The notes beneath the pieces are model-generated. The model worked only from the letters and a program-made list of their open reading frames with translations, had not been told where the DNA came from and did no database searches. Both the position numbers and the translations under genes were made by a program. 64,000 nucleotides of DNA. Source: an uncultured Alphaproteobacteria bacterium. GTDB taxonomy: Bacteria > Pseudomonadota > Alphaproteobacteria > CAZZKF01. Below are positions 6,461 through 29,906 of the stretch, piece by piece. The DNA is taken from positions 1,616 to 65,615 of the forward strand of contig CAZZKF010000005.1 in NCBI GenBank assembly GCA_964654995.1, read 5' to 3'. How positions within the stretch are numbered: position 1 is the stretch's first letter; every line of letters starts with the position of its first letter.

Positions 6461-7219
6461 TCAGACCCTGAAGGTGTATTGCTTGCCGGGCTCACGCTCG
6501 CAATCGGGAGGAAAGCCCTTGCGCTTGTCGGCGTAATAGCGCTCGCGGTGATCCCCGGCCGAGGTGCGGTTGTAGGTGATATAGAGAATGCGGCGCGACC
6601 GTTCGGTGCGGTTGGGCCCGGAGCCGTGCGGCGCATAGGAGTCGAAAAACGCCACATCCCCGGGTTTCGTGGGAAACGGCACGAAGTCCATGCCGGCGGT
6701 CTCGGCCTCGCTCAGGGGCTTCCATTCCTCGCCGATCAGGCCGCGGTCGTGAAAGCCGGCGGCGAGCTCCAGACAGCCGTTCTCCACCGTCGATTCATCG
6801 ATGCTGACCATCGCCGTGATGAAATAGTCGGCATACGCGTTCCAGCCCGCCTGCTGATCCTGATGCAGCTCGAAGCCGCCGCCGCCCGGCAGCTTGAAAT
6901 TGATCTTGTCCTTGTAGAGAACCGCCGGCTCGCCGAGCAGTTCCGCCACCGCGCCCTTGAGCCGGGGCTCGTCGAACAGGGCCTGGAAGCCGGCATGATA
7001 GGGATAGATGTTTTCGGCCCGCTGCAGCACCCGCACGCCGGGCTCAACGCGGCTGTCCTCGTAATACATCATGTGGCGGCCCGGCACTTCCGGCCAGGCG
7101 ACGATTTCATCGCACCAGGCGGCGATCCCGGCGATCTCGTCAGGCGCGAACAGGCCGCGCAGGATGACAAAACCATTGCGCTTGAAGTCAGCAATCTGCT
7201 GGGCGGTGAGGATGGCCAT
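6461..7219 (-). CDS. phytanoyl-CoA dioxygenase (PhyH) family Fe(II)/2-oxoglutarate-dependent oxygenase
   Basis: This is the C-terminal 252 codons of the artefactual 864-aa ORF 6461..9055. The real start is the ATG at 7219 (MAILTAQQIADFKRNGFVILRGLF...), a typical PhyH N-terminus. An HxD...H facial triad is present (FELHQDQ ... YAPHGSGPN). Confidence 0.8.
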   Translation of the reverse strand: MAILTAQQIADFKRNGFVILRGLFAPDEIAGIAAWCDEIVAWPEVPGRHMMYYEDSRVEPGVRVLQRAENIYPYHAGFQALFDEPRLKGAVAELLGEPAVLYKDKINFKLPGGGGFELHQDQQAGWNAYADYFITAMVSIDESTVENGCLELAAGFHDRGLIGEEWKPLSEAETAGMDFVPFPTKPGDVAFFDSYAPHGSGPNRTERSRRILYITYNRTSAGDHRERYYADKRKGFPPDCEREPGKQYTFRV

Positions 7220-7435
7220 GGCTATTTCCCCATACAACACGACGCCCCGAGCGGGGCCCGAACCCGCCCCGATTCTTAGCCCCGGCCCCGGTTCAACACC
7301 AAACAATTTTGCGTGTCGGCGGCGGGCTGCGCAGCGAGCGACGTTGAGGGCCCCCGCCCAATCCTCTATCCTGTCCAGACAAGACGGCACATCGTCGTTT
7401 CGCCGCCCGCACAACCGAACAGGGGGCACGGCTAG

Positions 7436-9109
7436 ATGACCGGCAAACATCGCCTGGAGCCCAAATCTGCAAGCCCGTGGAGCGACGCGGCGCCGACGAA
7501 GGCGGCGCGCTTTCGGGCCGAGCTCGAGTCGGCCGAGCTGTCGTTCCTGATGGAGGCCCACGACGGCCTGTCGGCCAAGGTCGTCGAGGAGGCCGGCTTT
7601 TGCGGCATCTGGGCCTCGGGCCTGGCGATCTCGGCGGCCATGGGCCTGCGCGACAACAACGAGGCCTCGTGGTCGCAGGTGCTCGAGGTGCTGGAATACA
7701 TGTCGGATGCCACGCGCATTCCGATCCTGCTCGACGGCGATACCGGCTACGGCAATTTCAACAATTTCCGGCATCTGGTGAAAAAGCTCGGCCAGCGCGA
7801 CATCGCCGCGGTGTGCATCGAGGACAAGCTGTTCCCCAAGACCAACTCGTTCATCGGCGAGCAGCAGCCGCTGGCCGACATCGACGAGTTCTGCGGCAAG
7901 ATCAAGGCCGGCAAGGACAGCCAGCTCGACGACGACTTCTCGATCATCGCCCGCGTCGAAGCCCTGATCGCCGGCTGGGGGCTGGATGAGGCCCTGCGGC
8001 GTGCCGAGGCCTATGCAGAGGCCGGGGCCGACGGCATCCTCATCCATTCCAAGCGCACCAGCGCCCGCGAGGTGCTGACCTTTGCCGCCGAATGGGCCGG
8101 GCGCAAGCCGCTGGTGATCGTGCCGACCATGTATTACGCGACGCCGACCGAGCGCTTCCGCGAGGCGGATATTTCCATGGTCATCTGGGCCAACCACAAT
8201 CTGCGCGCGGCCTTGAAGGCGATGCGCGAGGTCAGCCGGCGCATCTTCGAGGAGCAGAGCCTGGTCGGCATTGAAGGCCAGATCGCCAGCGTCCGCGACA
8301 TCTTCGAGATCACCGGCAACGACGAGCTGGCCGAGGCTGAGCGCCGCTATCTGGCCAAGGCCGAGCCGAGCGCGCGGGCCATCATTCTCGCCGCCTCGCG
8401 CGGCAGCGCGCTCGCCAAACTGACCGAGGATCGCCCCAAGTGCATGCTCGAGGTCGGCGGCCAGCCGATCCTGCGGCGCCTGGTCAGCACCTTGAATGAC
8501 GCCGGCATCCGCGACATCACCGTGGTCCGCGGCTATCGCAAGGAGGCGGTGGATCTGCCGGCGATTCGGACGGTCGATAACGATTCTTACGCCGAGACCG
8601 GCGAGGTCGCCTCGCTGGCCTGCGCTGCCGCGGCGCTCGAAGGCGATTGCATCGTCTCGTTCGGCGACATTCTGGTGCAGCGCTACATCGTCGGCGAACT
8701 GTTCGAGGCGCAAGGCGATATCGTCGTCGTCGTCGATGCCCTGTGGCGCCAGCGCAGCGATGTTGCCAGCCACGACAAGCGCGATCTGGCGCGCTGCAGC
8801 CGGCCGCGGCCGACCGACTGGCTGGATGACGAGCCGGTCTATCTGGAGGCGCTGGACACCGCCATCGACCCGGCCTGGACCCATGGCCGCTGGATCGGGC
8901 TGGTGAAACTGAGCGCCGCCGGCTGCCGGCTGGTGCGCGACGAGATCAAGGCGATGGGCGAGGACGGCGTGCTCGAGACCGCGTCGATGGCCGATCTGTT
9001 CAACCGGCTGATCGCCAAGGGCGTGCGCCCGGTGGTCCATTATGTCGCCGGCCACTGGCTCGACGTGAACGACGCCTTCGACCTTGCCCAGGCCCGCGAC
9101 TTCGTGTGA
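7436..9109 (+). CDS. pepM: phosphoenolpyruvate phosphomutase fused to a C-terminal nucleotidyltransferase domain (PepM::NTase)
   Basis: 557 aa. The N-terminal ~295 aa form an ICL/PEP-mutase fold ([25 protein letters not shown] motif characteristic of PepM). The C-terminal ~250 aa are sugar-nucleotidyltransferase-like ([30 protein letters not shown]). Confidence 0.85.
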
Positions 9110-22034: not shown

Positions 22035-22481
22035 TTACGCCGGATCCTCGGGCCAGGTGACGATATGGCTTTCGACGTCCGAGGCCTCGCGCTCGCTGAT
22101 CACGCGGCCGCGCACCGAGACGCCGGCGGCATGGACGGTTCCCGAATCGCCCGAGACCAGCGGGTGCCACCAGGCCAGCCCCCGGCCCTCGGAGATGCGG
22201 CGGTAGGCGCAGCTCGGCGGCAGCCAGGCCAGATCGTCGAGCTTCTCAGGCCTCAGGACGACGCAATCGGGGACCAGGCGGGCGCGGGCGCTGTAGCGAG
22301 TGCAGCGGCAGCTTTTCAGGTTGAGCAGGCGGCAGGCGATCCGGGTGAACACCACCGGCCCGTCATCCTCGTCCTGAACCTTGTGGAGACAGCAGCGCCC
22401 GCAGCCGTCGCACAGGGATTCCCATTCCCGGGCGGTCATTTCGTCAAGGCGCTTGACCTCCCAGAACGGCTTGTCCGTCAT
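22035..22481 (-). CDS. YcgN/UPF0260 family Cys-rich protein
   Basis: 148 aa. Cys cluster CDGCGRCC...C and overall similarity to the YcgN family. It overlaps the senC start by 4 nt, consistent with an operon. Confidence 0.75.
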
Positions 22482-23110
22482 CCCCCCGACCGATCGATGA
22501 AGCCGGCGATCTTTGCCGCCATCGCCTCGGGCGCGACCTCGCGCCCGAAATGCGTCAGATAGCGCCCGTCGCGGCCCATCAGAAAGACGATGGAGCTGTG
22601 ATCCATCAGATAGTCGTCTTCGTCGCCGGCGCGGGCGTAATAGACGTGATAGGCGCGGGTGATCGCGCGAATCTGCTCCGGCGTTCCGGTCAGCCCGCGA
22701 AAACGGGGATGGAAGTGGCTCAGGTATTCGGCCAGCACCGGCGCCGTATCGCGCGCCGGGTCGACGGTGATGAACAACGGCTGGACGGCCTCGGCCTTGG
22801 CGCCCAGTTCGTCGAGAGCGGCACTCATCACCTGCAGTTCCATCGGGCAGACGTCGGGACAGGAGGTGTAGCCGAAATAGATCAGCATAAACCGGCCGCG
22901 AAAATCATTGTCGCTCACCGTCCGGCCATCCTGATCGATCAGCGTGAACGGTCCGCCGATCTGAACTGCGCGGTGGACCATCTCCGGCTGCGGCTCGGAG
23001 CGGTGACGCAACACCCAGGAGGCGGCGACAACGGCCAGAACCGTGGCCAGCACAAACCATGAAATGCGGGCGATCAGACGGCTGCGGGGAAGCGGATTCT
23101 TGTCGGTCAC
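22478..23110 (-). CDS. senC: SCO1/SenC copper chaperone (thioredoxin fold)
   Basis: 210 aa. N-terminal TM anchor. CxxxC copper motif [12 protein letters not shown], plus a downstream conserved His. Confidence 0.9.
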
Positions 23111-23282
23111 GGGCGCGGTCCTCGAACGTCTGCCCGGGAGATCCCGACCGGGCGACTTGAAAGCCGGGTCCAGCTATTGCATAAAACGGTCGCGGGAGTA
23201 AATACGAGACCCCCGATCCGCCCCGTCGCCCGCTCGGGCCGCGGGGGAGGAACGGGGCGATACCGCAATCAGGAGAAATGAA

Positions 23283-23849
23283 ATGCCGGGCCGGATCGTA
23301 CTGCTTTTCGGCGTCCTGTGTGGCCTCATCCTGGCCTCTTCGGGCCCTGCAAGTGCGCAACTGTCGCCGGACGCCAAGCTGGTCAAGGCCATTCGCGACG
23401 GTGACTTGCGCGAAATTCAGGTCCGGGTGCTCAACGGCGCCAATGTCAACGCCCGCGACGCCGATGGCACGCCGGCTTTGGTGATTGCCGCCGACAAGGG
23501 CGAGGCTTCGGTCGTTCAGTATCTGCTGCGCAACGGTGCGCGCGCGGACTCGGCGGCGCGCAAGACCGGCCTGACGGCGCTGATGGCGGCGTCCGAGCGT
23601 GGCGACACCGCGGTTGTCCGGCTGCTGCTGTCCAAGGGCGCCGACCCCGACGCCACGGACCGGCGCGGCGAGACGGCGCTGATCAAGGCGGCACGGCGTG
23701 GCCGGCGCGGACCGGTCGAGGCGCTGCTCAAGGCCGGCGCCGATTACGACATCGAGGATTATACCGGGCGCACGGCCCTGCAATACGCCCGGGATTCACG
23801 AAAGCGCAGTATTGTCGACATGCTGGAGCGCGCTGGTGCCACCTATTAG
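23283..23849 (+). CDS. ankyrin-repeat protein with signal peptide
   Basis: 188 aa. Signal peptide (LLFGVLCGLILASSGPASA). Four or more ANK repeats (DGTPALVIAADKGEASVVQYLLRNGA, TGLTALMAASERGDTAVVRLLLSKGA, ...). Confidence 0.85.
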   Translation: MPGRIVLLFGVLCGLILASSGPASAQLSPDAKLVKAIRDGDLREIQVRVLNGANVNARDADGTPALVIAADKGEASVVQYLLRNGARADSAARKTGLTALMAASERGDTAVVRLLLSKGADPDATDRRGETALIKAARRGRRGPVEALLKAGADYDIEDYTGRTALQYARDSRKRSIVDMLERAGATY

Positions 23850-23922
23850 AGCCCGCTGACATTTGCCTTGCCGGCGGCCAAGGCGCCGGTCCCGGGCAGA
23901 CCGTCGCCGGCCAAGGCGGAAC

Positions 23923-25320
23923 ATGATGACCACGGACCAGGACTCCCCCACCGCATCTTCGGGGTCGACCGCGTCGGCCACGACCGAACCGTTGCGGGTG
24001 CGCGAACACGTGCGGCTGCGCACCCTGATCTTCATTCGCTGGATCGCGGTGCTCGGCCAGGCGACGACATTGCTGTTCGTTCATTTCGTTGCCGGCTTCC
24101 ATGTGCCGTTGATGCCGGCGGCGGTGGCGATTGCCGCCTCGGTGGTGCTCAATCTGATTCTCACCGCCGCCTATCCGCCGACCCGGCGCCTGACCGACCG
24201 GCAGGCAACCCTGCATCTCGGATATGATCTGCTGCAGCTCAGCGTGCTCCTGTACCTGACCGGCGGGCTGGCCAATCCGTTCGCCGTGCTGATGCTGGTG
24301 CCGGTCACCATTTCGGCCACGATCCTGAGCGGCCGCAGCACCCTGGAACTGGGCGGGCTGGCGCTGATCTGCGTCACCGGCCTGGCGTTCTTCTACCAGC
24401 CGCTCCCCTGGTCGGACGGAGGTCTGGAGCTGCCACCCATCTATATCTGGGGTGTGTGGTCGGCGCTGGTGCTGGGTACCGCCTTCATGGCCACCTACGC
24501 CTGGCGCGTGGCCTGCGAGGCGCGCCGCCTGTCGGAAGCGCTGGTCGCCAGCCGTCTGGCCCTCGCCAACGAGCAGAAGCTTTCCGCCCTGGGCGGGCTG
24601 GCGGCCGCCGCCGCCCATGAGCTGGGAACCCCGTTGGGCACCATCGCCCTGGTCGCCAAGGAGCTGAGCCGGGCCGTCCCCGACGACAGTCCGCTGAAAC
24701 CCGACATCGCCCTGCTGCGTGCGGAAGCCGGCCGCTGCCGCGATATCCTGGCGCGGCTGCTGCACCGGCCGACCCAGACCGATCCGTTTCCGTTCGATGT
24801 GATGCCGCTCTCCGCGGTCGTCGAAGAGGCAGCCGAACCGCATCGCCATTATGGCATCGACATTGCGTTCATCGCCCACGGCGCGCCGGAGTCCGAGCCG
24901 CGGCTGCGACCGGTTCCCGAATTGGTCCATGGTCTCGGCAATATCATTGAAAACGCCGTCGGCTTTGCCCGAAACCGGGTGGAAATCGACATGACCTGGG
25001 ATGACCGCAGCGTCTCCATCACCGTCGCCGATGATGGCCCCGGGTTCGAGCCGCGCCTGCTCGGCTGGCTTGGTGAGCCTTATCTGAGTTCGCGCAGTGA
25101 CGCGAACTCCGGGGAGACGCGCGACGAGGCCGGCGGCATGGGGCTCGGCATCTTCATCGCCAAGACCCTGTTGGGGCGCACCGGCGCCGGTCTGAGCTTC
25201 GCCAACCGCCCCGGCACAGGCGCCGCGGTGACGGTGAACTGGCCGCGGGTCAGCCTTGCAGAACCGCCGGCAGCGACCGAAAACACGACGGCTTTGGCAC
25301 TGGACGCAATTAAAGGGTAG
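23923..25320 (+). CDS. regB: redox-responsive sensor histidine kinase RegB/PrrB/ActS
   Basis: Six TM helices, the RegB-specific redox-box region and the hallmark GGLANPF loop. H-box AAAAHELGTPLGTI. The ATPase G-boxes are present. I chose the start at the ATG pair at 23923; the ORF track begins at 23863. Confidence 0.9.
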   Translation: MMTTDQDSPTASSGSTASATTEPLRVREHVRLRTLIFIRWIAVLGQATTLLFVHFVAGFHVPLMPAAVAIAASVVLNLILTAAYPPTRRLTDRQATLHLGYDLLQLSVLLYLTGGLANPFAVLMLVPVTISATILSGRSTLELGGLALICVTGLAFFYQPLPWSDGGLELPPIYIWGVWSALVLGTAFMATYAWRVACEARRLSEALVASRLALANEQKLSALGGLAAAAAHELGTPLGTIALVAKELSRAVPDDSPLKPDIALLRAEAGRCRDILARLLHRPTQTDPFPFDVMPLSAVVEEAAEPHRHYGIDIAFIAHGAPESEPRLRPVPELVHGLGNIIENAVGFARNRVEIDMTWDDRSVSITVADDGPGFEPRLLGWLGEPYLSSRSDANSGETRDEAGGMGLGIFIAKTLLGRTGAGLSFANRPGTGAAVTVNWPRVSLAEPPAATENTTALALDAIKG

Positions 25321-25321
25321 A

Positions 25322-25921
25322 ATGACTCTAAGACTCGGCCCTCGGGATATGGCGGAAACAGATGAGAGCAAGATGCGCGCGGATAGCAGCGAGAGCAGGG
25401 TGCGACGGCTGCTGATCGTCGATGACGACGCGGCGTTCCGGAACCGGCTGGCACGGGCGATGGAACAGCGCGGCTACCGGGTCGGCGCGGCCGCCTCGAT
25501 CGACGAGGCCATTGCCCAGGCACGCGCCGAGCCTCCCGATTTTGCGGTCATCGATCTGCGCCTCGAGGACGGCAGCGGCCTTGACATTGTCGCCACCTTG
25601 CGCGACCTGCAGCCCGGCGTGCGCATCGTCATCCTCACCGGCTACGGCAACATCGCGACCGCGGTGGCGGCGGTCAAGGCCGGGGCCGTCGATTATCTCG
25701 CCAAGCCGGCCGATGCCGACGATATCGAGGCGGCGCTGCTGGCCGAGGAAGGCGCCAAGCCGCCGCCGCCGGAAAATCCGATGTCGGCCGACCGGGTGCG
25801 CTGGGAACACATCCAGCGGGTCTACGAGCTGTGCGGCCGCAATGTCTCGGAAACCGCACGCCGGCTGCGCATGCACCGCCGCACCCTGCAACGGATTCTC
25901 GCCAAGCGCTCGCCGCGCTGA
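25322..25921 (+). CDS. regA: response regulator RegA/PrrA/ActR (REC + Fis-type HTH)
   Basis: Receiver domain (LLIVDDDAAFRN...DLRLEDGSGL) and the nearly invariant RegA C-terminal HTH (NVSETARRLRMHRRTLQRILAKR). The start could be 25322 or 25349. The ORF-track start at 25256 overlaps regB. Confidence 0.9.
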   Translation: MTLRLGPRDMAETDESKMRADSSESRVRRLLIVDDDAAFRNRLARAMEQRGYRVGAAASIDEAIAQARAEPPDFAVIDLRLEDGSGLDIVATLRDLQPGVRIVILTGYGNIATAVAAVKAGAVDYLAKPADADDIEAALLAEEGAKPPPPENPMSADRVRWEHIQRVYELCGRNVSETARRLRMHRRTLQRILAKRSPR

Positions 25922-25940: not shown

Positions 25941-26702
25941 TCAGCCGCCGCGTGGCGGCCGGACCGGGCGGCGCAACCGCGGCGTCGACGCCGACGCCGG
26001 CAGGCGGTGAAGCCACCAGGCGTTCTCGTTGATCGAATAGATCGGCCGGTAGTGGCGAATGGTGGCGGCATCGACCACCCGCGAGATCTGATTGTCCAGA
26101 ATCAGTGTGCGACCGTTCAGGTAGACCGCCAGCACGGCGTGCGGGACGTTAAGATTGAGGTCCTGGAGAACGACGATGCGGAGCTGGTCGGCATCGAAGC
26201 CCAGGGCGCGGAGCGCCATGTATTTGGCGATCGCGTAATCCTCGCAGTCGCCATCCTTGCGCAGGAATTCGACAGGTGTCGCCCAGTAATCCCGGACCCC
26301 CCAGTTGCGCGGGTCGGTGATATAGGGGCTCAGGTTCATGCGCGCGTGCACGGCTTCGACCTGGGAGCGGGGGTCGCGATTTTTCAGATCGGCAATGAAA
26401 CGGTCCCAGTCGCGCAGGAAACAGCGGGAAAAACGGGTCGGCTGGCAGCTCGAAGCGCGGGCGCGTTCGGCCTCGAAGCGGGCCAGCATGCCGGTCCATT
26501 TACCGAACGCCGCGAGCCGGGTGCTGCGGATCTCGATGCTGCCGAACAGGCCGCTTGCCGCCTTGCCCGCCGCCGGCGTGGCGGCGACGGCGCCGCCGGC
26601 AGATGCCAGCGTGATGAGAAGGCCGAAGGCCGCCAGCCATCGCCACCATGACAGGCGTCGATATCGGTCGGCAGGTCTGTGGCTGCGGCCGGCGAGTCCC
26701 AT
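25941..26702 (-). CDS. periplasmic transglutaminase-like cysteine proteinase (BTLCP/LapG-like, peptidase C93)
   Basis: 253 aa. Signal peptide present. The conserved order Cys (DGDCEDYAIAKY), His (NVPHAVLAV) and Asp (LILDNQ) matches the BTLCP catalytic-triad arrangement. Confidence 0.75.
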   Translation of the reverse strand: MGLAGRSHRPADRYRRLSWWRWLAAFGLLITLASAGGAVAATPAAGKAASGLFGSIEIRSTRLAAFGKWTGMLARFEAERARASSCQPTRFSRCFLRDWDRFIADLKNRDPRSQVEAVHARMNLSPYITDPRNWGVRDYWATPVEFLRKDGDCEDYAIAKYMALRALGFDADQLRIVVLQDLNLNVPHAVLAVYLNGRTLILDNQISRVVDAATIRHYRPIYSINENAWWLHRLPASASTPRLRRPVRPPRGG

Positions 26703-26910
26703 GCGCTGTCCCGTCTGTGGCCGGCCGATTCGAAGGGCCGGAGCGGAAATTGTCGGCCGGTGCCGTTAACAAGCTGTTAAGCGTAAAGTCGTTAGCTCTG
26801 GAAGGACGGGCCGCCCCCGGGTTACAAGAGGAGTGCCGGGACGCGAAATCGGCTGCGCGGAGCGGCCATGCCCGGATGGAGACGGGAACCGCGGTTCCCG
26901 AAGGAAGGAG

Positions 26911-29025
26911 ATGGGCCCAGTGCCGGAACCGGTCAGCCGCGTGTCAAACGCCCGGATCGGCCGCACAGGCCTCGCGATCGGGCTGGGGCTTGCCCTGGCG
27001 GTGATTGTCGGCGTTGTTCTGGTGCTCCGCTTCACCGCCGCCGAGCGCCAGCGTGATCTGCGCGCCTGGCAGATCCGCCTCGGCATCGTCGCCGATTCGC
27101 GCGCGGCGGCCGTCAATGACTGGCTGGCCGACCAGATGGGCGCGATTCGCGAAATCGCCGACAACCCCTCGGTGGCGCTCTATCTGACTGAGCTGGCGCT
27201 GGCCGCCGGCGACCCGGACCAGGTGGCGGAGGCAACGGCCCAGGAAGAGTATCTGCGCACCCTGCTGATCACCGTCGCCAGCCGCGCGCGCTTCGAAGGA
27301 CCGCTGCTCGGCCCCGATGTCGCCGCCAATATCGAGCGCCAGGGCATCGCCGGCCTGATGCTCGTGGACGCCGGCGGCCGGCCGCTGGTGGCGACCCCCC
27401 AAGCGCCGCGTCTCGACGCGCGGCTCGACGCGATGCTGGCGGCAGTGCAGGGGCGCAGTCATGCGATCGCCGGTCCCTGGCTGGGCCCGGGCGACGAGCC
27501 GGTTCTGGCTTTCGTCATGCCCATCGCCCCGGTCCAGGGCACCGAGGGCGAGGATGCCCCGGTCGGCTTCGTGATCGGCGTCAAGCGGCTGGCCGAGGGG
27601 CTTTACGAGGCACTGCGCCAGCCCGGCGAGACCGAGGAGAGTGCCCGCACCTATCTGGTCCGGGCCCGCGGCGCGGTGATCGAGTATCTGTCGCCGCTCG
27701 ATGATGCGGCACCGCTGAAATTTACCATGGCCCGCGATACACGCGATCTGGCGGCCGCCTATGCCCTTGACTCGCCCGGCGGATTCGCGCGGCGGATCGA
27801 TGCTTGGAACCGCCCGGTTCTGGTCACCAGCCGAGCCCTCGACGAGGTGCCCTGGGTGCTGGTCCGCACGGTTTCGCTCAAGGAGGCGCTGGCCGAAAGC
27901 AATGCCCGGCGCAGCGCCTTCCTGGTGGTCGTGCTGCTGGCGATCTTCGGCGCCGCCGCCGGCATTCTTCTGGTCTGGCGCCACGGCACCTCGCTGCGGG
28001 CGGCCGCGGCGGCCGAGCGCTACCGCGAGATGGCCGAGCGCCATGCCCGCCTCGGCCGGTTCCTGCGCATTGTCGCCGATGCCCAGCCGACGGCGATCGC
28101 CACCGTCGACGGTGACGGCGTCTACAGCTTCGCCAACGCCCGCGCCGCCGATGACGCCGGCATCGCCGCCGATGATTTCCCCGGCAAGACCATGGCCAGC
28201 GTCCTCGGCCCGGCGAGGGCGGCGCTGTTCCAGCCGCTCAACAAGGCGGCGCTGGAGACCGGCCAGCCGGTGTTCCGGACCCAGACCGTCGACGAGACCC
28301 GCGGCCAGAAGATCATCCGTTCGGCGCATGTGCCGCTGCCCGACGAAGCCTCCGAGCGCCGCGAGGTCCTGATGGTCATGGAGGATGTCACCGAGCTGGT
28401 GCGCGAGCGCGAGCGCCGCGAAGCCAATCTGCGCCAGCTGGTGACCACGCTGACCGGCATCATCGACCGGCGCGACCCGTTTGCGGCGCGCCATTCGGCC
28501 CGGGTTGCCGAGGTGGCGGAGGCGATCGCCGTCGAGATGGGCCTCTCGGATGTCGAGGTGGAAACCGCCGAGATCGCCGGGGCGCTGATGAACCTCGGCA
28601 AGATCCTGGTGCCGGAAGAGGTGCTGACCGCCGCCCGGACCTTGACGCCGGATCAGCTTCAAAGCGTGCGCGAGGCGATCGCCGCCAGTGCCGATCTGCT
28701 GGAAGGGGTGGAGTTCGACGGCCCGGTGGTTGCCACCATTCGCCAGGTTCAGGCGCGCTGGGACGGCGCCGGCGTGCCCGAGGGGCTCAAGGGCGAAGAC
28801 ATTCTGGTCACCGCCCGGGTAGTCGCCGTGGCCAATGCCTTCGTCGGCATGGTCAGTGCGCGGGCCTACCGTCCGGGGCTCGATATGGACGATGCCATCA
28901 ACCAGTTGCTGGCGGATGTCGGCAAGGCCTTCGACCGAGGCCCGGTTGCGGCGCTGGTCAACATTCTGGATAATCGCGACGGCCGCGCGCGCTGGGCCGA
29001 CTTCGGAACACCGCCCGAAGCCTGA
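26911..29025 (+). CDS. membrane-bound sensor protein: TM, periplasmic sensor domain, TM, PAS, then a degenerate HD-GYP domain
   Basis: I chose the ATG at 26911 because AAGGA lies 5 nt upstream. The ORF-track start is 26833. Two hydrophobic helices (about aa 15-40 and 315-340 of this model) flank a ~270-aa periplasmic region. The cytoplasmic part has a PAS-like segment and an HD-GYP fold that aligns motif-for-motif with RpfG-type domains, but the catalytic residues are replaced (see findings). Confidence 0.8.
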   Translation: MGPVPEPVSRVSNARIGRTGLAIGLGLALAVIVGVVLVLRFTAAERQRDLRAWQIRLGIVADSRAAAVNDWLADQMGAIREIADNPSVALYLTELALAAGDPDQVAEATAQEEYLRTLLITVASRARFEGPLLGPDVAANIERQGIAGLMLVDAGGRPLVATPQAPRLDARLDAMLAAVQGRSHAIAGPWLGPGDEPVLAFVMPIAPVQGTEGEDAPVGFVIGVKRLAEGLYEALRQPGETEESARTYLVRARGAVIEYLSPLDDAAPLKFTMARDTRDLAAAYALDSPGGFARRIDAWNRPVLVTSRALDEVPWVLVRTVSLKEALAESNARRSAFLVVVLLAIFGAAAGILLVWRHGTSLRAAAAAERYREMAERHARLGRFLRIVADAQPTAIATVDGDGVYSFANARAADDAGIAADDFPGKTMASVLGPARAALFQPLNKAALETGQPVFRTQTVDETRGQKIIRSAHVPLPDEASERREVLMVMEDVTELVRERERREANLRQLVTTLTGIIDRRDPFAARHSARVAEVAEAIAVEMGLSDVEVETAEIAGALMNLGKILVPEEVLTAARTLTPDQLQSVREAIAASADLLEGVEFDGPVVATIRQVQARWDGAGVPEGLKGEDILVTARVVAVANAFVGMVSARAYRPGLDMDDAINQLLADVGKAFDRGPVAALVNILDNRDGRARWADFGTPPEA

Positions 29026-29081
29026 GCCCGGTATGAGCCGTCCGTATCGGGCGGCGGCGGTTCAGGCAGGATGGGCGAACC

Positions 29082-29906
29082 ATGCAGGTCATCGACAGGT
29101 TGAAGGCGCTGTTGCCCGGGCGATCGCAGCCCGAGCCGGCGCCCCCGCGTGGCCCGGAGGGTACCCGCATCTATGCGGTCGGCGACATTCACGGGCGCGT
29201 CGATCTTCTGGGCGAGCTGCGCGCGCGAATTGCCGAGGACGCGGCGGCGCATTCGCAGGCCCGCCGCGTGATCGTCTATCTCGGCGACTATGTCGATCGC
29301 GGACCGGCCAGCCGCGAGGTCATCGAAACGCTGGCCGGTGAGCCGTTGCCGGGCTTTCAGGAGGTTCACCTGCTGGGCAATCACGAAGACATGTTCATGC
29401 GGTTTCTCGGCGACGTGCGCATCGGCCCGGTGTGGTTTCTGAACGGCGCCCGGGCGACGCTGGCCAGCTATGGCGTCGATGTTCCGGACGCGGCCGATGA
29501 CGAGACCGCGTTCGCCGACATTCAGGCGCGCATCAATGATCAGTTGCCGGCGCACCACCGCGCCTTCCTGCGCGGGCTTCGACCCTGGCACCTGGAAGGC
29601 GACTATCTGTTCGTGCATGCCGGCCTGCGCCCGGGCCGCCGGATCGAGCGTCAGGACATCGAGGACCTGATCTGGATTCGCGACGACTTTCTGAATTCGG
29701 ACGCCGACTTTGGCGCCGTCGTCGTGCATGGCCATTCGATTCGCGAGGCCCCCGAATTTTGCGCCAACCGCATCGGCATCGACACCGGGGCGTATCGAAC
29801 CGGGGTGCTGACGGCGCTGGCGCTCGAGGGCGAGGCCCGCACCATCCTTCAAACCGGGCAGACCGGGCCGCAGGCCGGCGCGACAGATGAACCGGAGACG
29901 CGATAA
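29082..29906 (+). CDS. PPP-family serine/threonine protein phosphatase (metallophosphoesterase, PrpA/ApaH-like)
   Basis: 274 aa. Metallophosphatase motifs GDIHGR, GDYVDRG, GNHE and a GH motif. Confidence 0.85.
   Translation: MQVIDRLKALLPGRSQPEPAPPRGPEGTRIYAVGDIHGRVDLLGELRARIAEDAAAHSQARRVIVYLGDYVDRGPASREVIETLAGEPLPGFQEVHLLGNHEDMFMRFLGDVRIGPVWFLNGARATLASYGVDVPDAADDETAFADIQARINDQLPAHHRAFLRGLRPWHLEGDYLFVHAGLRPGRRIERQDIEDLIWIRDDFLNSDADFGAVVVHGHSIREAPEFCANRIGIDTGAYRTGVLTALALEGEARTILQTGQTGPQAGATDEPETR

Follow-up and report, generated by a model that had tools for sequence, protein, structure and literature searches.

The closest described relatives of the system considered here are DvhD and DvhG (BfsD/BfsG; DVU1020/DVU1019) of Desulfovibrio (Nitratidesulfovibrio) vulgaris Hildenborough, reported by Karbelkar et al. 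(2024, PNAS, PMC10990149) and Font et al. (2026, Nat Commun, PMC13090378). DvhD consists of a transmembrane (TM) helix, a periplasmic dCache domain, a second TM helix, a PAS domain and an HD-GYP domain in which HD is replaced by SQ and HH by MN (PMC10990149, PMC13090378). It binds cyclic di-GMP (c-di-GMP) with a Kd of ~0.3 uM, does not hydrolyze it, and controls the BTLCP-family protease DvhG in a reconstituted system (PMC10990149, PMC13090378). DvhD also accommodates 3'3'-cGAMP and, more weakly, pGpG and c-di-AMP (PMC13090378). Here we analyze a 64,000-nucleotide stretch from an uncultured alphaproteobacterium (contig CAZZKF010000005.1, positions 1,616 to 65,615; hereafter the window) and a pair of divergent genes within it, encoding a membrane sensor and a BTLCP protease, which we consider probably to be an alphaproteobacterial module of the DvhD/DvhG type, an HD-GYP-based analogue of LapD/LapG.

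The window, part of a metagenome-assembled genome (JGI sample 3300023440), is chromosomal, with ~67-68% GC and with dnaN-recF-gyrB ~6 kb upstream. Three genes lie in 25941-29906: the BTLCP protease gene on the minus strand, the divergent sensor gene on the plus strand and a PPP-family phosphatase gene, also on the plus strand. The features are given below with their strand and the evidence for each.

25941 to 26702, minus: BTLCP protease gene, DvhG-type LapG homologue, 253 aa (PF06035, LapG structures, DvhG alignment)
26580 to 26702, minus: predicted export signal of the protease, residues 1-41 (hydropathy and sequence reading)
26418 to 26555, minus: N-terminal extension of the protease, residues ~50-95 (family alignment; pairwise alignments with DvhG and LapG)
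26094 to 26246, minus: catalytic core of the protease, Cys153 to Asp203 (invariant columns in 27 homologues)
26703 to 26910, no strand: divergent intergenic (promoter) region, 208 bp (sequence)
26766 to 26780, no strand: perfect match to the CtrA-box consensus TTAACAAGCTGTTAA (TTAA-N7-TTAA) (unique in the window; conserved in the subclade)
26911 to 29025, plus: DvhD-type receptor gene, 704 aa, TM-dCache-TM-PAS-degenerate HD-GYP (Pfam, hydropathy, fold, alignments)
26971 to 27027, plus: TM helix 1, residues 21-39 (hydropathy 3.0)
27028 to 27918, plus: periplasmic dCache domain, ~297 aa (AlphaFold2 model, Foldseek, conservation)
27919 to 27975, plus: TM helix 2, residues 337-355 (hydropathy 2.99)
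28078 to 28404, plus: cytoplasmic PAS domain (PAS_4, 55.8 bits; aligns with the DvhD PAS domain, 9rc0)
28453 to 28938, plus: degenerate HD-GYP domain, presumed cyclic-dinucleotide-binding module (HD_5, 112.7 bits; 9rbz_A)
29082 to 29906, plus: PPP-family phosphatase gene, similar to Rhizobiales-like phosphatases (RLPH) (Metallophos, 47 bits; 5vjv, E 1.5e-10)

A first-pass annotation made from the sequence had proposed an exported BTLCP with a C-H-D triad, a TM-periplasmic-TM-PAS-HD-GYP sensor whose HD-GYP domain is catalytically degenerate, and a PPP phosphatase 56 nt downstream. These assignments hold, with the size given for the periplasmic part, ~270 aa, corrected to ~297 aa. The annotation was also right that a LapD gene is missing: neither a GGDEF motif nor a LapD_MoxY_N domain occurs in the 64 kb, and a regular-expression scan for GGDEF and HD-GYP motifs revealed no further c-di-GMP enzymes there. 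The sensor start listed among the open reading frames (ORFs), GTG 26833 (730 aa), was rejected in favor of ATG 26911 (704 aa), which is almost certain, being supported by a Shine-Dalgarno sequence, the homologue alignment and the gene call of the public record.

The HD-GYP domain of the sensor, recognized by HD_5 (~112 bits in the Pfam check), has all of its metal ligands replaced: HD is MN (28588-28593), HH is VQ and the last metal-binding Asp is Asn, and GYP reads GVP. The WDGxGxPxG and R-x-Y segments are kept. Across 25 homologues (44-83% identity) the HD position reads MN within LMNLGK, HH is variable, GYP is G-P or GVP and the Asp is again Asn; ~120 sensors from the fetched loci and the consensus built from 54 distant cluster representatives show the same degeneracy. 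Loss of these motifs throughout the family indicates a conserved pseudoenzyme and not a decaying gene, and from the loss of the metal ligands the domain is predicted to lack phosphodiesterase activity. The best sequence match of the sensor in the PDB is DvhD's PAS/HD-GYP portion (9rc0_A, E 3.8e-42, residues 393-691, an end-to-end alignment), and the DvhD HD-GYP domain (9rbz_A) matches at E 2.3e-35. Active HD-GYP enzymes match at ~1e-17 (best 6e-18), 24 orders of magnitude weaker than DvhD. A search with the DvhD cytoplasmic fragment against a 5.8-billion-protein index yielded only fragments at <=59% identity and did not recover the DVU1020 locus.

We mapped the c-di-GMP contacts of 9RBZ onto the sensor alignment, taking the roles of the residues from the structural study (PMC13090378). 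In the window sensor L577, M646, R650 and Y652 of DvhD are unchanged, Y523 is Phe and E668 is Asp; at the bridging site P567 is Pro and K520 is Arg. L577 and Y652 (the base clamp), M646, the phosphate-binding R650, Y523 (as Phe or Tyr) and P567 are kept in the window, in the alphaproteobacterial clade and in a second clade with co-directional gene order described below. With its contacts mostly conserved, the sensor is likely to bind a cyclic dinucleotide.

The periplasmic domain was modeled with AlphaFold2 at high confidence (pLDDT 92.9, pTM 0.90), and the top match of the model in a whole-PDB Foldseek search is 9RC2, 'DvhD, periplasmic domain' (E 1.3e-10, TM-score 0.77), with generic dCache domains next in the ranking at ~5e-8. 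Its most conserved residues lie in the long helix alpha1 that follows TM helix 1 and in a short helix alpha1' (ERxRDLxAWQIRLGIVADSR ... NxSLQLY), with the break between the two helices at Asp110-Asn111. DvhD has the same break in alpha1, and its alpha1' is the predicted docking surface for DvhG (PMC13090378). A search of 1.84 billion cluster representatives recovered 369 with this type of periplasmic domain at E<=1e-10. Nearly all full-length matches are 680-740 aa long, and among the distant representatives scanned HD_5 was present in 54/54 and PAS in 52/54, so this type of periplasmic domain is confined to the present architecture.

The protease matches PF06035 at 59 bits (cut-off 27). Its triad of Cys153, His188 and Asp203 (codons 26244-26246, 26139-26141 and 26094-26096) is invariant in the 27-homologue alignment, as is the GDCEDY motif around the cysteine, which contains the calcium-site acidic residues D152 and E154. 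The hydropathy scan found a single hydrophobic segment, at the N-terminus (residues 23-41, score 1.93); a basic n-region with an RR pair, the core LAAFGLLITLASAGGAVAA and an AxA-like site (Sec or Tat) together read, by hydropathy and by eye, as a signal for export to the periplasm. LapG structures are matched at E 1e-25 (4fgo) and E 1.4e-20 (4u65_E). Identity is 41% over 191 aa, end to end, to the BTLCP domain of DvhG, whose sequence was taken from the supplement of the 2026 paper (PMC13090378), in an alignment that starts at residue 44, versus 38% over the 137-residue core for P. fluorescens LapG, where the alignment starts at residue 99. With a hidden Markov model of the protease family, DvhG obtains 169 bits and LapG 106 bits, and the window protease reaches 105 bits against the NCBIfam LapG equivalog NF045674, below its cut-off of 320. 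Its N-terminal extension carries a motif, LFGSxExRS..L..F.KW, that is common to DvhG and absent from LapG. The earlier label 'LapG-like' is apt as to the BTLCP family, and by these sequence comparisons the protease is nearer DvhG than LapG.

Two further residues of the extension, C86 and C94, never vary within the alphaproteobacterial BTLCP family but occur in neither DvhG nor LapG, and a disulfide might link them in the periplasm.

To follow the two genes across genomes, we used two sets of related loci (L001-L160). The sensor-centred set holds 80 loci, kept of at least 445 relatives in a collection with one genome per species (~186,000 species genomes), and the protease-centred set holds the 80 best metagenomic relatives, of which 57 loci are informative. 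A BTLCP gene lies upstream of the sensor and divergent from it at 59/80 sensor-centred loci, or 52/70 with enough upstream sequence, and in 47 of these 52 the aligned gene ends are <=700 bp apart. From the other side, a full-length sensor accompanies the protease in 55 of the 57 informative loci, divergent in 29 and co-directional (protease, then sensor) in 24, the co-directional sensors being 31-38% identical to that of the window. The adjacency of sensor and BTLCP is far beyond chance, and its persistence despite the change of gene order and the divergence of sequence argues for a functional link rather than residual synteny. The outcome that the first-pass annotation named as counting against it, a pair not conserved as neighbors in other genomes, is contradicted by these counts. 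Sensor-centred carriers include Rhodospirillales, Sneathiellales, metagenome-assembled genomes labeled Hyphomicrobiales, Magnetovibrio, Thalassospiraceae, Dongiaceae, Virgifigura and Paramagnetospirillum. Virgifigura deserti, Desertibaculum subflavum, Paramagnetospirillum kuznetsovii and Sneathiella are cultured carriers. All-against-all clustering of the ORFs of these loci revealed no other widely recurrent neighbor, regBA being confined to close relatives.

The phosphatase gene follows the sensor on the same strand after 56 nt, and its translation contains the PPP motifs GDxHG, GDxVDRG and GNHE. It has no hydrophobic segment by hydropathy, which points to a cytoplasmic protein, and its best PDB match is Rhizobiales-like phosphatase 2 (RLPH2, 5vjv). 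Of 66 informative loci, 16 have a phosphatase gene downstream of the sensor, all in the one subclade closest to the window; in 13 of them the gap measures 34-182 nt. It is an accessory gene particular to this subclade and is probably transcribed together with the sensor. We know of no bacterial RLPH with a defined substrate.

The first-pass annotation had suggested a LapD-analogous system in which a pseudo-HD-GYP receptor controls a periplasmic protease. Homology to the proven DvhD/DvhG pair now supports the core of that suggestion; the phosphatase, found at 16/66 loci, drops out as a general component. In the DvhD/DvhG-type module that we favor, the 704-aa inner-membrane protein would be a dimeric receptor; its dead HD-GYP domain would bind but not hydrolyze a cyclic dinucleotide, with c-di-GMP the likeliest. 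Ligand binding would alter the dimer of the PAS domain and stalk, and the membrane helices would pass this change on to the dCache domain in the periplasm. While c-di-GMP is high, that domain would hold back the product of the neighboring gene, an exported, calcium-dependent cysteine protease; once c-di-GMP drops, the freed protease would cut a periplasm-exposed segment of an envelope protein encoded elsewhere, by analogy the retention module of a surface adhesin. In the window subclade, transcription and c-di-GMP might jointly confine the activity of the protease to low-c-di-GMP (motile) cells.

Several observations weigh against this interpretation. The first concerns the substrate: the window has no giant adhesin or type I secretion system (T1SS) gene, as the first-pass annotation had also concluded. 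Its longest ORF is <=1009 aa, none longer than ~900 aa was judged real, and the largest ones are of housekeeping type (IF-2, PNPase, Lnt and phosphoenolpyruvate (PEP) mutase). A tblastn search with the DvhA retention module found nothing significant in the window or the 160 loci, and a T1SS/adhesin cluster does not recur within +/-10 kb in 80 related loci, unlike in the Dvh operon. With such genes absent nearby, the substrate of the protease would be encoded elsewhere or be of another kind. The second concerns the ligand: three of the eight canonical c-di-GMP contacts of DvhD are changed in the window sensor (K582 to Leu, Y621 to Val, E668 to Asp), R569 of the bridging site is Glu, and 45 of 78 alphaproteobacterial relatives lack the Tyr of GYP through a deletion. 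The position of K582 is Arg in many relatives, and that of the guanine-reading E668 is D, Q, E or G across the family. Given these changes, affinity or ligand could differ from those of DvhD. The third concerns the contact between the two proteins: the periplasmic domain shares 17% identity with that of DvhD, a likeness at the level of fold, and a search of PDB sequences with the sequence profile of the family did not detect 9RC2 and gave a weak match to KinD (E 0.006), so that homology of the periplasmic domain to DvhD is a matter of fold and a common protease-docking interface is only plausible. How DvhD restrains DvhG is not established in the Dvh system either (PMC13090378). Finally, in ~9 loci of a marine subclade the sensor is kept but no BTLCP gene lies within 10 kb of it.

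The best match of the retention module, in L034 (E 0.11), was rejected as an adhesin: it is a small HPr-kinase-like ORF with a GKS P-loop by eye, and it adjoins an apparent peptide-maturation gene.

The divergent promoter region bears on what the protease may act upon. Its CtrA box, which precedes the BTLCP ATG by ~65 nt and the sensor ATG by ~130 nt, is the single match to TTAA-N7-TTAA in the 64-kb window, where 0.01 are expected. Among the 84 divergent loci, 11 carry the motif in the corresponding spacer, a density of 0.43 per kb; the other 1.06 Mb of locus sequence, which is mostly coding, has 0.005 per kb. It is present in 9/20 loci with the phosphatase versus 2/64 others (Fisher p 2e-5), and comparison of the window with L163, its closest relative, and with L009 and L028 shows it as a preserved block within a spacer that has otherwise diverged. 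Half-sites of the form TTAACCAT occur in 10 further or overlapping loci. A sigma-70 consensus scan of the spacer found none, a result that is uninformative at 68% GC in an alphaproteobacterium. Together, the CtrA box and the RLPH-type phosphatase suggest that expression in the subclade is probably tied to the CtrA cell-cycle/motility regulon.

There is precedent for CtrA control of a BTLCP. HvyA of Caulobacter crescentus is a periplasmic BTLCP under CtrA control that keeps the capsule from forming in G1 cells, and among its Sinorhizobium orthologues the promoter of SMc00998 has a CtrA site and NGR_c12490 a CtrA chromatin immunoprecipitation signal (Ardissone et al. 2014, PMC4241560). The predicted box and this precedent lend some weight to the view that the protease is limited to cells in which CtrA is active and c-di-GMP is low. 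They also favor the best-surviving alternative, which keeps the receptor-protease logic and changes the target: the protease would act, like HvyA, on envelope polysaccharide export or on another envelope protein rather than an adhesin. Catalytic spacing close to that of HvyA (34/15 vs 35/15) and the lack of adhesin or T1SS genes near the pair, in the window and in 80 relatives, fit this account. So does a Bac_transf + CoA_binding_3 polyprenyl glycosylphosphotransferase gene that starts 4 nt before the BTLCP stop in three loci (L087, L089 and L108; L089 1250-2674), reminiscent of hvyA beside pssY. Yet no capsule or exopolysaccharide genes were found flanking the pair in the window, the resemblance to HvyA is one of description and triad spacing and not of sequence alignment, no receptor partner is known for HvyA, and the closest characterized homologues of both proteins are the adhesin-controlling Dvh pair. 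We therefore hold a non-adhesin target to be a serious contender, if an unlikely one.

A more specific and speculative scenario, to which we give a low probability, combines these elements: in one subclade the module would have become split from a cis-encoded adhesin and T1SS, come under CtrA and been coupled to the RLPH-type phosphatase, linking, at the level of the receptor, the oscillation of c-di-GMP to an HvyA-like control of the envelope through a target other than a LapA-type adhesin. The protease, turned on by CtrA, would be set free by low c-di-GMP only in motile or G1-type cells, and might there act on the capsule or exopolysaccharide machinery or on another envelope protein.

It is improbable, in our estimate, that the degenerate HD-GYP domain senses a different nucleotide (3'3'-cGAMP, pGpG or another) or none at all and serves as a dimerization or scaffold module. 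The variability of E668 and the loss of K582 and of the GYP tyrosine leave room for this, as does the tolerance of DvhD itself for 3'3'-cGAMP and, less so, pGpG and c-di-AMP; the phosphatase superfamily includes the nucleotide-cleaving ApaH and PrpE, to which NCBIfam gives weak matches (1e-9 to 1e-10). The conservation of L577, M646, R650, Y652 and Y523 in all three clades is unexpected for a mere scaffold, however, and the best structural relative of the phosphatase is a protein phosphatase, RLPH2. In addition, an EAL-domain gene (31 bits, at the cut-off) adjoins the BTLCP gene in four loci (L088, L090, L103 and L104; e.g. L104 4746-6098), which is consistent with a connection to c-di-GMP.

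Signaling might also run from outside to inside, with the dCache domain sensing a periplasmic small molecule, or being cleaved or modified by the BTLCP as the input, and the pseudo-HD-GYP domain signaling to the cytoplasm, for example to the phosphatase. dCache domains are typically ligand sensors, the other top fold matches of the modeled domain are ligand-binding domains of chemoreceptors and kinases, and the authors of the Dvh work could not exclude a ligand (PMC13090378). Some sensors have no adjacent protease, and in the window subclade a cytoplasmic phosphatase is probably co-transcribed with the sensor; that phosphatase is nevertheless absent from ~3/4 of loci. The most conserved periplasmic residues lie on alpha1 and alpha1', the latter corresponding to the predicted docking helix of DvhD, and not in a pocket, and in the reconstituted Dvh system information flows from c-di-GMP through DvhD to DvhG (PMC10990149). 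An outside-in direction is on this evidence decidedly improbable. That the adjacency is mere inherited synteny of two independent genes is hardly credible, for while a housekeeping neighborhood (regBA, senC, PBP1, yaaA) is kept in several relatives, the surrounding genes vary widely with only the pair constant, the linkage is seen from both sides, in two gene orders and between clades 31-38% identical, and the homologous Desulfovibrio pair is functionally coupled.

Sensor loci of Rhodospirillaceae without a neighboring BTLCP comprise L013, L002, L003, L005, L008, L014, L017, L018, L021 and L031; the BTLCP-less marine sensors are flanked by an EamA-type transporter, argD, argF and hsp33. In L013 (19427-21005) the BTLCP and PPP phosphatase genes are still divergent neighbors and the sensor lies 8 kb away, as if it had moved out from between them. 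Elsewhere the BTLCP and sensor genes are separated by insertions: a PEP-CTERM-anchored protein in L063 (9100-9744), a HerA-like ATPase and a small histidine kinase in L058 (7209-9802) and L059, and a LysR regulator and peroxiredoxin in L041 (8035-9666). No insertion recurs, so the inserted genes are not counted in the module. In L082 (25-1481) two tandem BTLCP genes stand beside regA, and several Sneathiella species are listed with two DvhG homologues each (PMC13090378).

In the co-directional clade a conserved outer-membrane protein of ~433 aa is encoded beside the pair in 16 loci (e.g. L133 4630-5931), upstream on the opposite strand in 14 of the 16. The loci are listed here.

Loci with the ~433-aa outer-membrane protein: L109, L112, L115, L116, L119, L122, L131, L133
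Further loci with the ~433-aa outer-membrane protein: L138, L150, L151, L153, L154, L157, L159, L160

The protein combines a signal peptide with TPR repeats and a C-terminal beta-barrel, and it gives weak matches to Slam/DUF560 (below the Pfam cut-off) and DUF2860 (just above it). It may be an anchor or a substrate-handling partner in that clade.

On its other side, the BTLCP gene converges on regA, whose stop ends at 25921, 19 nt from the BTLCP stop codon. regA belongs to a senC(SCO1)-regB-regA redox-regulator cluster (window 22478-25921) in which a gene for an exported ankyrin-repeat protein (23283-23849) is inserted between senC and regB; the senC-ankyrin-regB-regA/BTLCP layout is also present in the closest relatives L163, L048 and L098. 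Further away, region 6461-9109 contains a gene for a PEP mutase fused to a nucleotidyltransferase domain (window 7436-9109) beside a PhyH-type dioxygenase gene, an arrangement that suggests a phosphonate biosynthesis cluster. An 864-aa minus-strand ORF in the same region is mostly a high-GC artefact.

The arrangement of a pseudo-HD-GYP receptor beside a periplasmic protease, which the first-pass annotation had taken to be undescribed, was published in 2024 and 2026. The main text of the 2026 paper treats Desulfovibrionales only, and its Supplementary Table 7 lists DvhG homologues in Sneathiella, Kiloniella, Pelagibius, Fodinicurvata, Oceanibacterium and Denitrobaculum (PMC13090378), so alphaproteobacterial pairs of this kind are already catalogued. 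What the present locus appears to add to these accounts is modest: the pair has no adhesin operon nearby, its promoter has a CtrA box that is conserved in one subclade, and in that subclade an RLPH-type phosphatase accompanies it. Far from being restricted to sulfate reducers, the HD-GYP-based counterpart of LapD/LapG belongs to a large family of fixed architecture that is widespread in Alphaproteobacteria. Its adhesin-free clade is useful for exploring which other targets these proteases may cleave, and how control by c-di-GMP meets CtrA-driven cell-cycle programs. For annotation, 'DvhD-like receptor' and 'DvhG-like protease' are preferable to 'HD domain phosphohydrolase' and 'transglutaminase-like cysteine peptidase'.

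Compared with known proteins, the window phosphatase shares the PPP signature motifs with RLPH2 (5vjv) and lambda phosphatase (1g5b), although only its N-terminal 80 residues align well. The HD-GYP domain of the sensor has the HD_5 fold and family in common with active enzymes (PmGH, 4mcw/4mdz; V-cGAP3, 5z7c; PA4781, 4r8z), whose metal ligands are intact whereas those of the sensor are replaced. HvyA (CCNA_00166) resembles the window protease, by description, as an exported alphaproteobacterial BTLCP with a CtrA-controlled promoter, with 34 and 15 residues between C192, H226 and D241 versus 35 and 15 in the window protease. hvyA, with a CtrA/MucR-controlled promoter, sits in a capsule export locus with no receptor partner described (PMC4241560), whereas the window protease has no adjacent capsule genes and a DvhD-type receptor as its conserved neighbor.

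LapD/LapG of P. fluorescens and other Gammaproteobacteria embodies the same inside-out principle, a degenerate inner-membrane c-di-GMP receptor controlling a periplasmic calcium-dependent BTLCP, and the core of the window protease is homologous to LapG. LapG does not have the N-terminal extension of the window protease, however, and the window sensor is unrelated to LapD, with no LapD_MoxY_N, HAMP, GGDEF or EAL domain. The mechanism by which the Trp loop of LapD engages the pocket of LapG is reported to be absent from the Dvh system (PMC13090378).

It is with DvhD/DvhG that the locus compares most closely. The receptor architecture is the same, the genes are adjacent, the BTLCP bears an N-terminal extension with LFGxIExR..KW, and DvhD is the best PDB match both of the cytoplasmic half of the sensor, by sequence, and of its periplasmic domain, by fold. 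The window genes are divergent, in contrast to the order dvhG->dvhD, and where the Dvh operon has a cis-encoded adhesin and T1SS, the window pair has no dvhA-like adhesin or T1SS nearby. The degenerate HD position is MN in the window sensor and SQ in DvhD, and the GYP Tyr is lost in the window. The window protease appears to have a signal of the cleavable type and carries two additional conserved cysteines, whereas DvhG has a long linker and a membrane anchor. The CtrA box and the RLPH-type phosphatase are what the window subclade adds to the Dvh arrangement.

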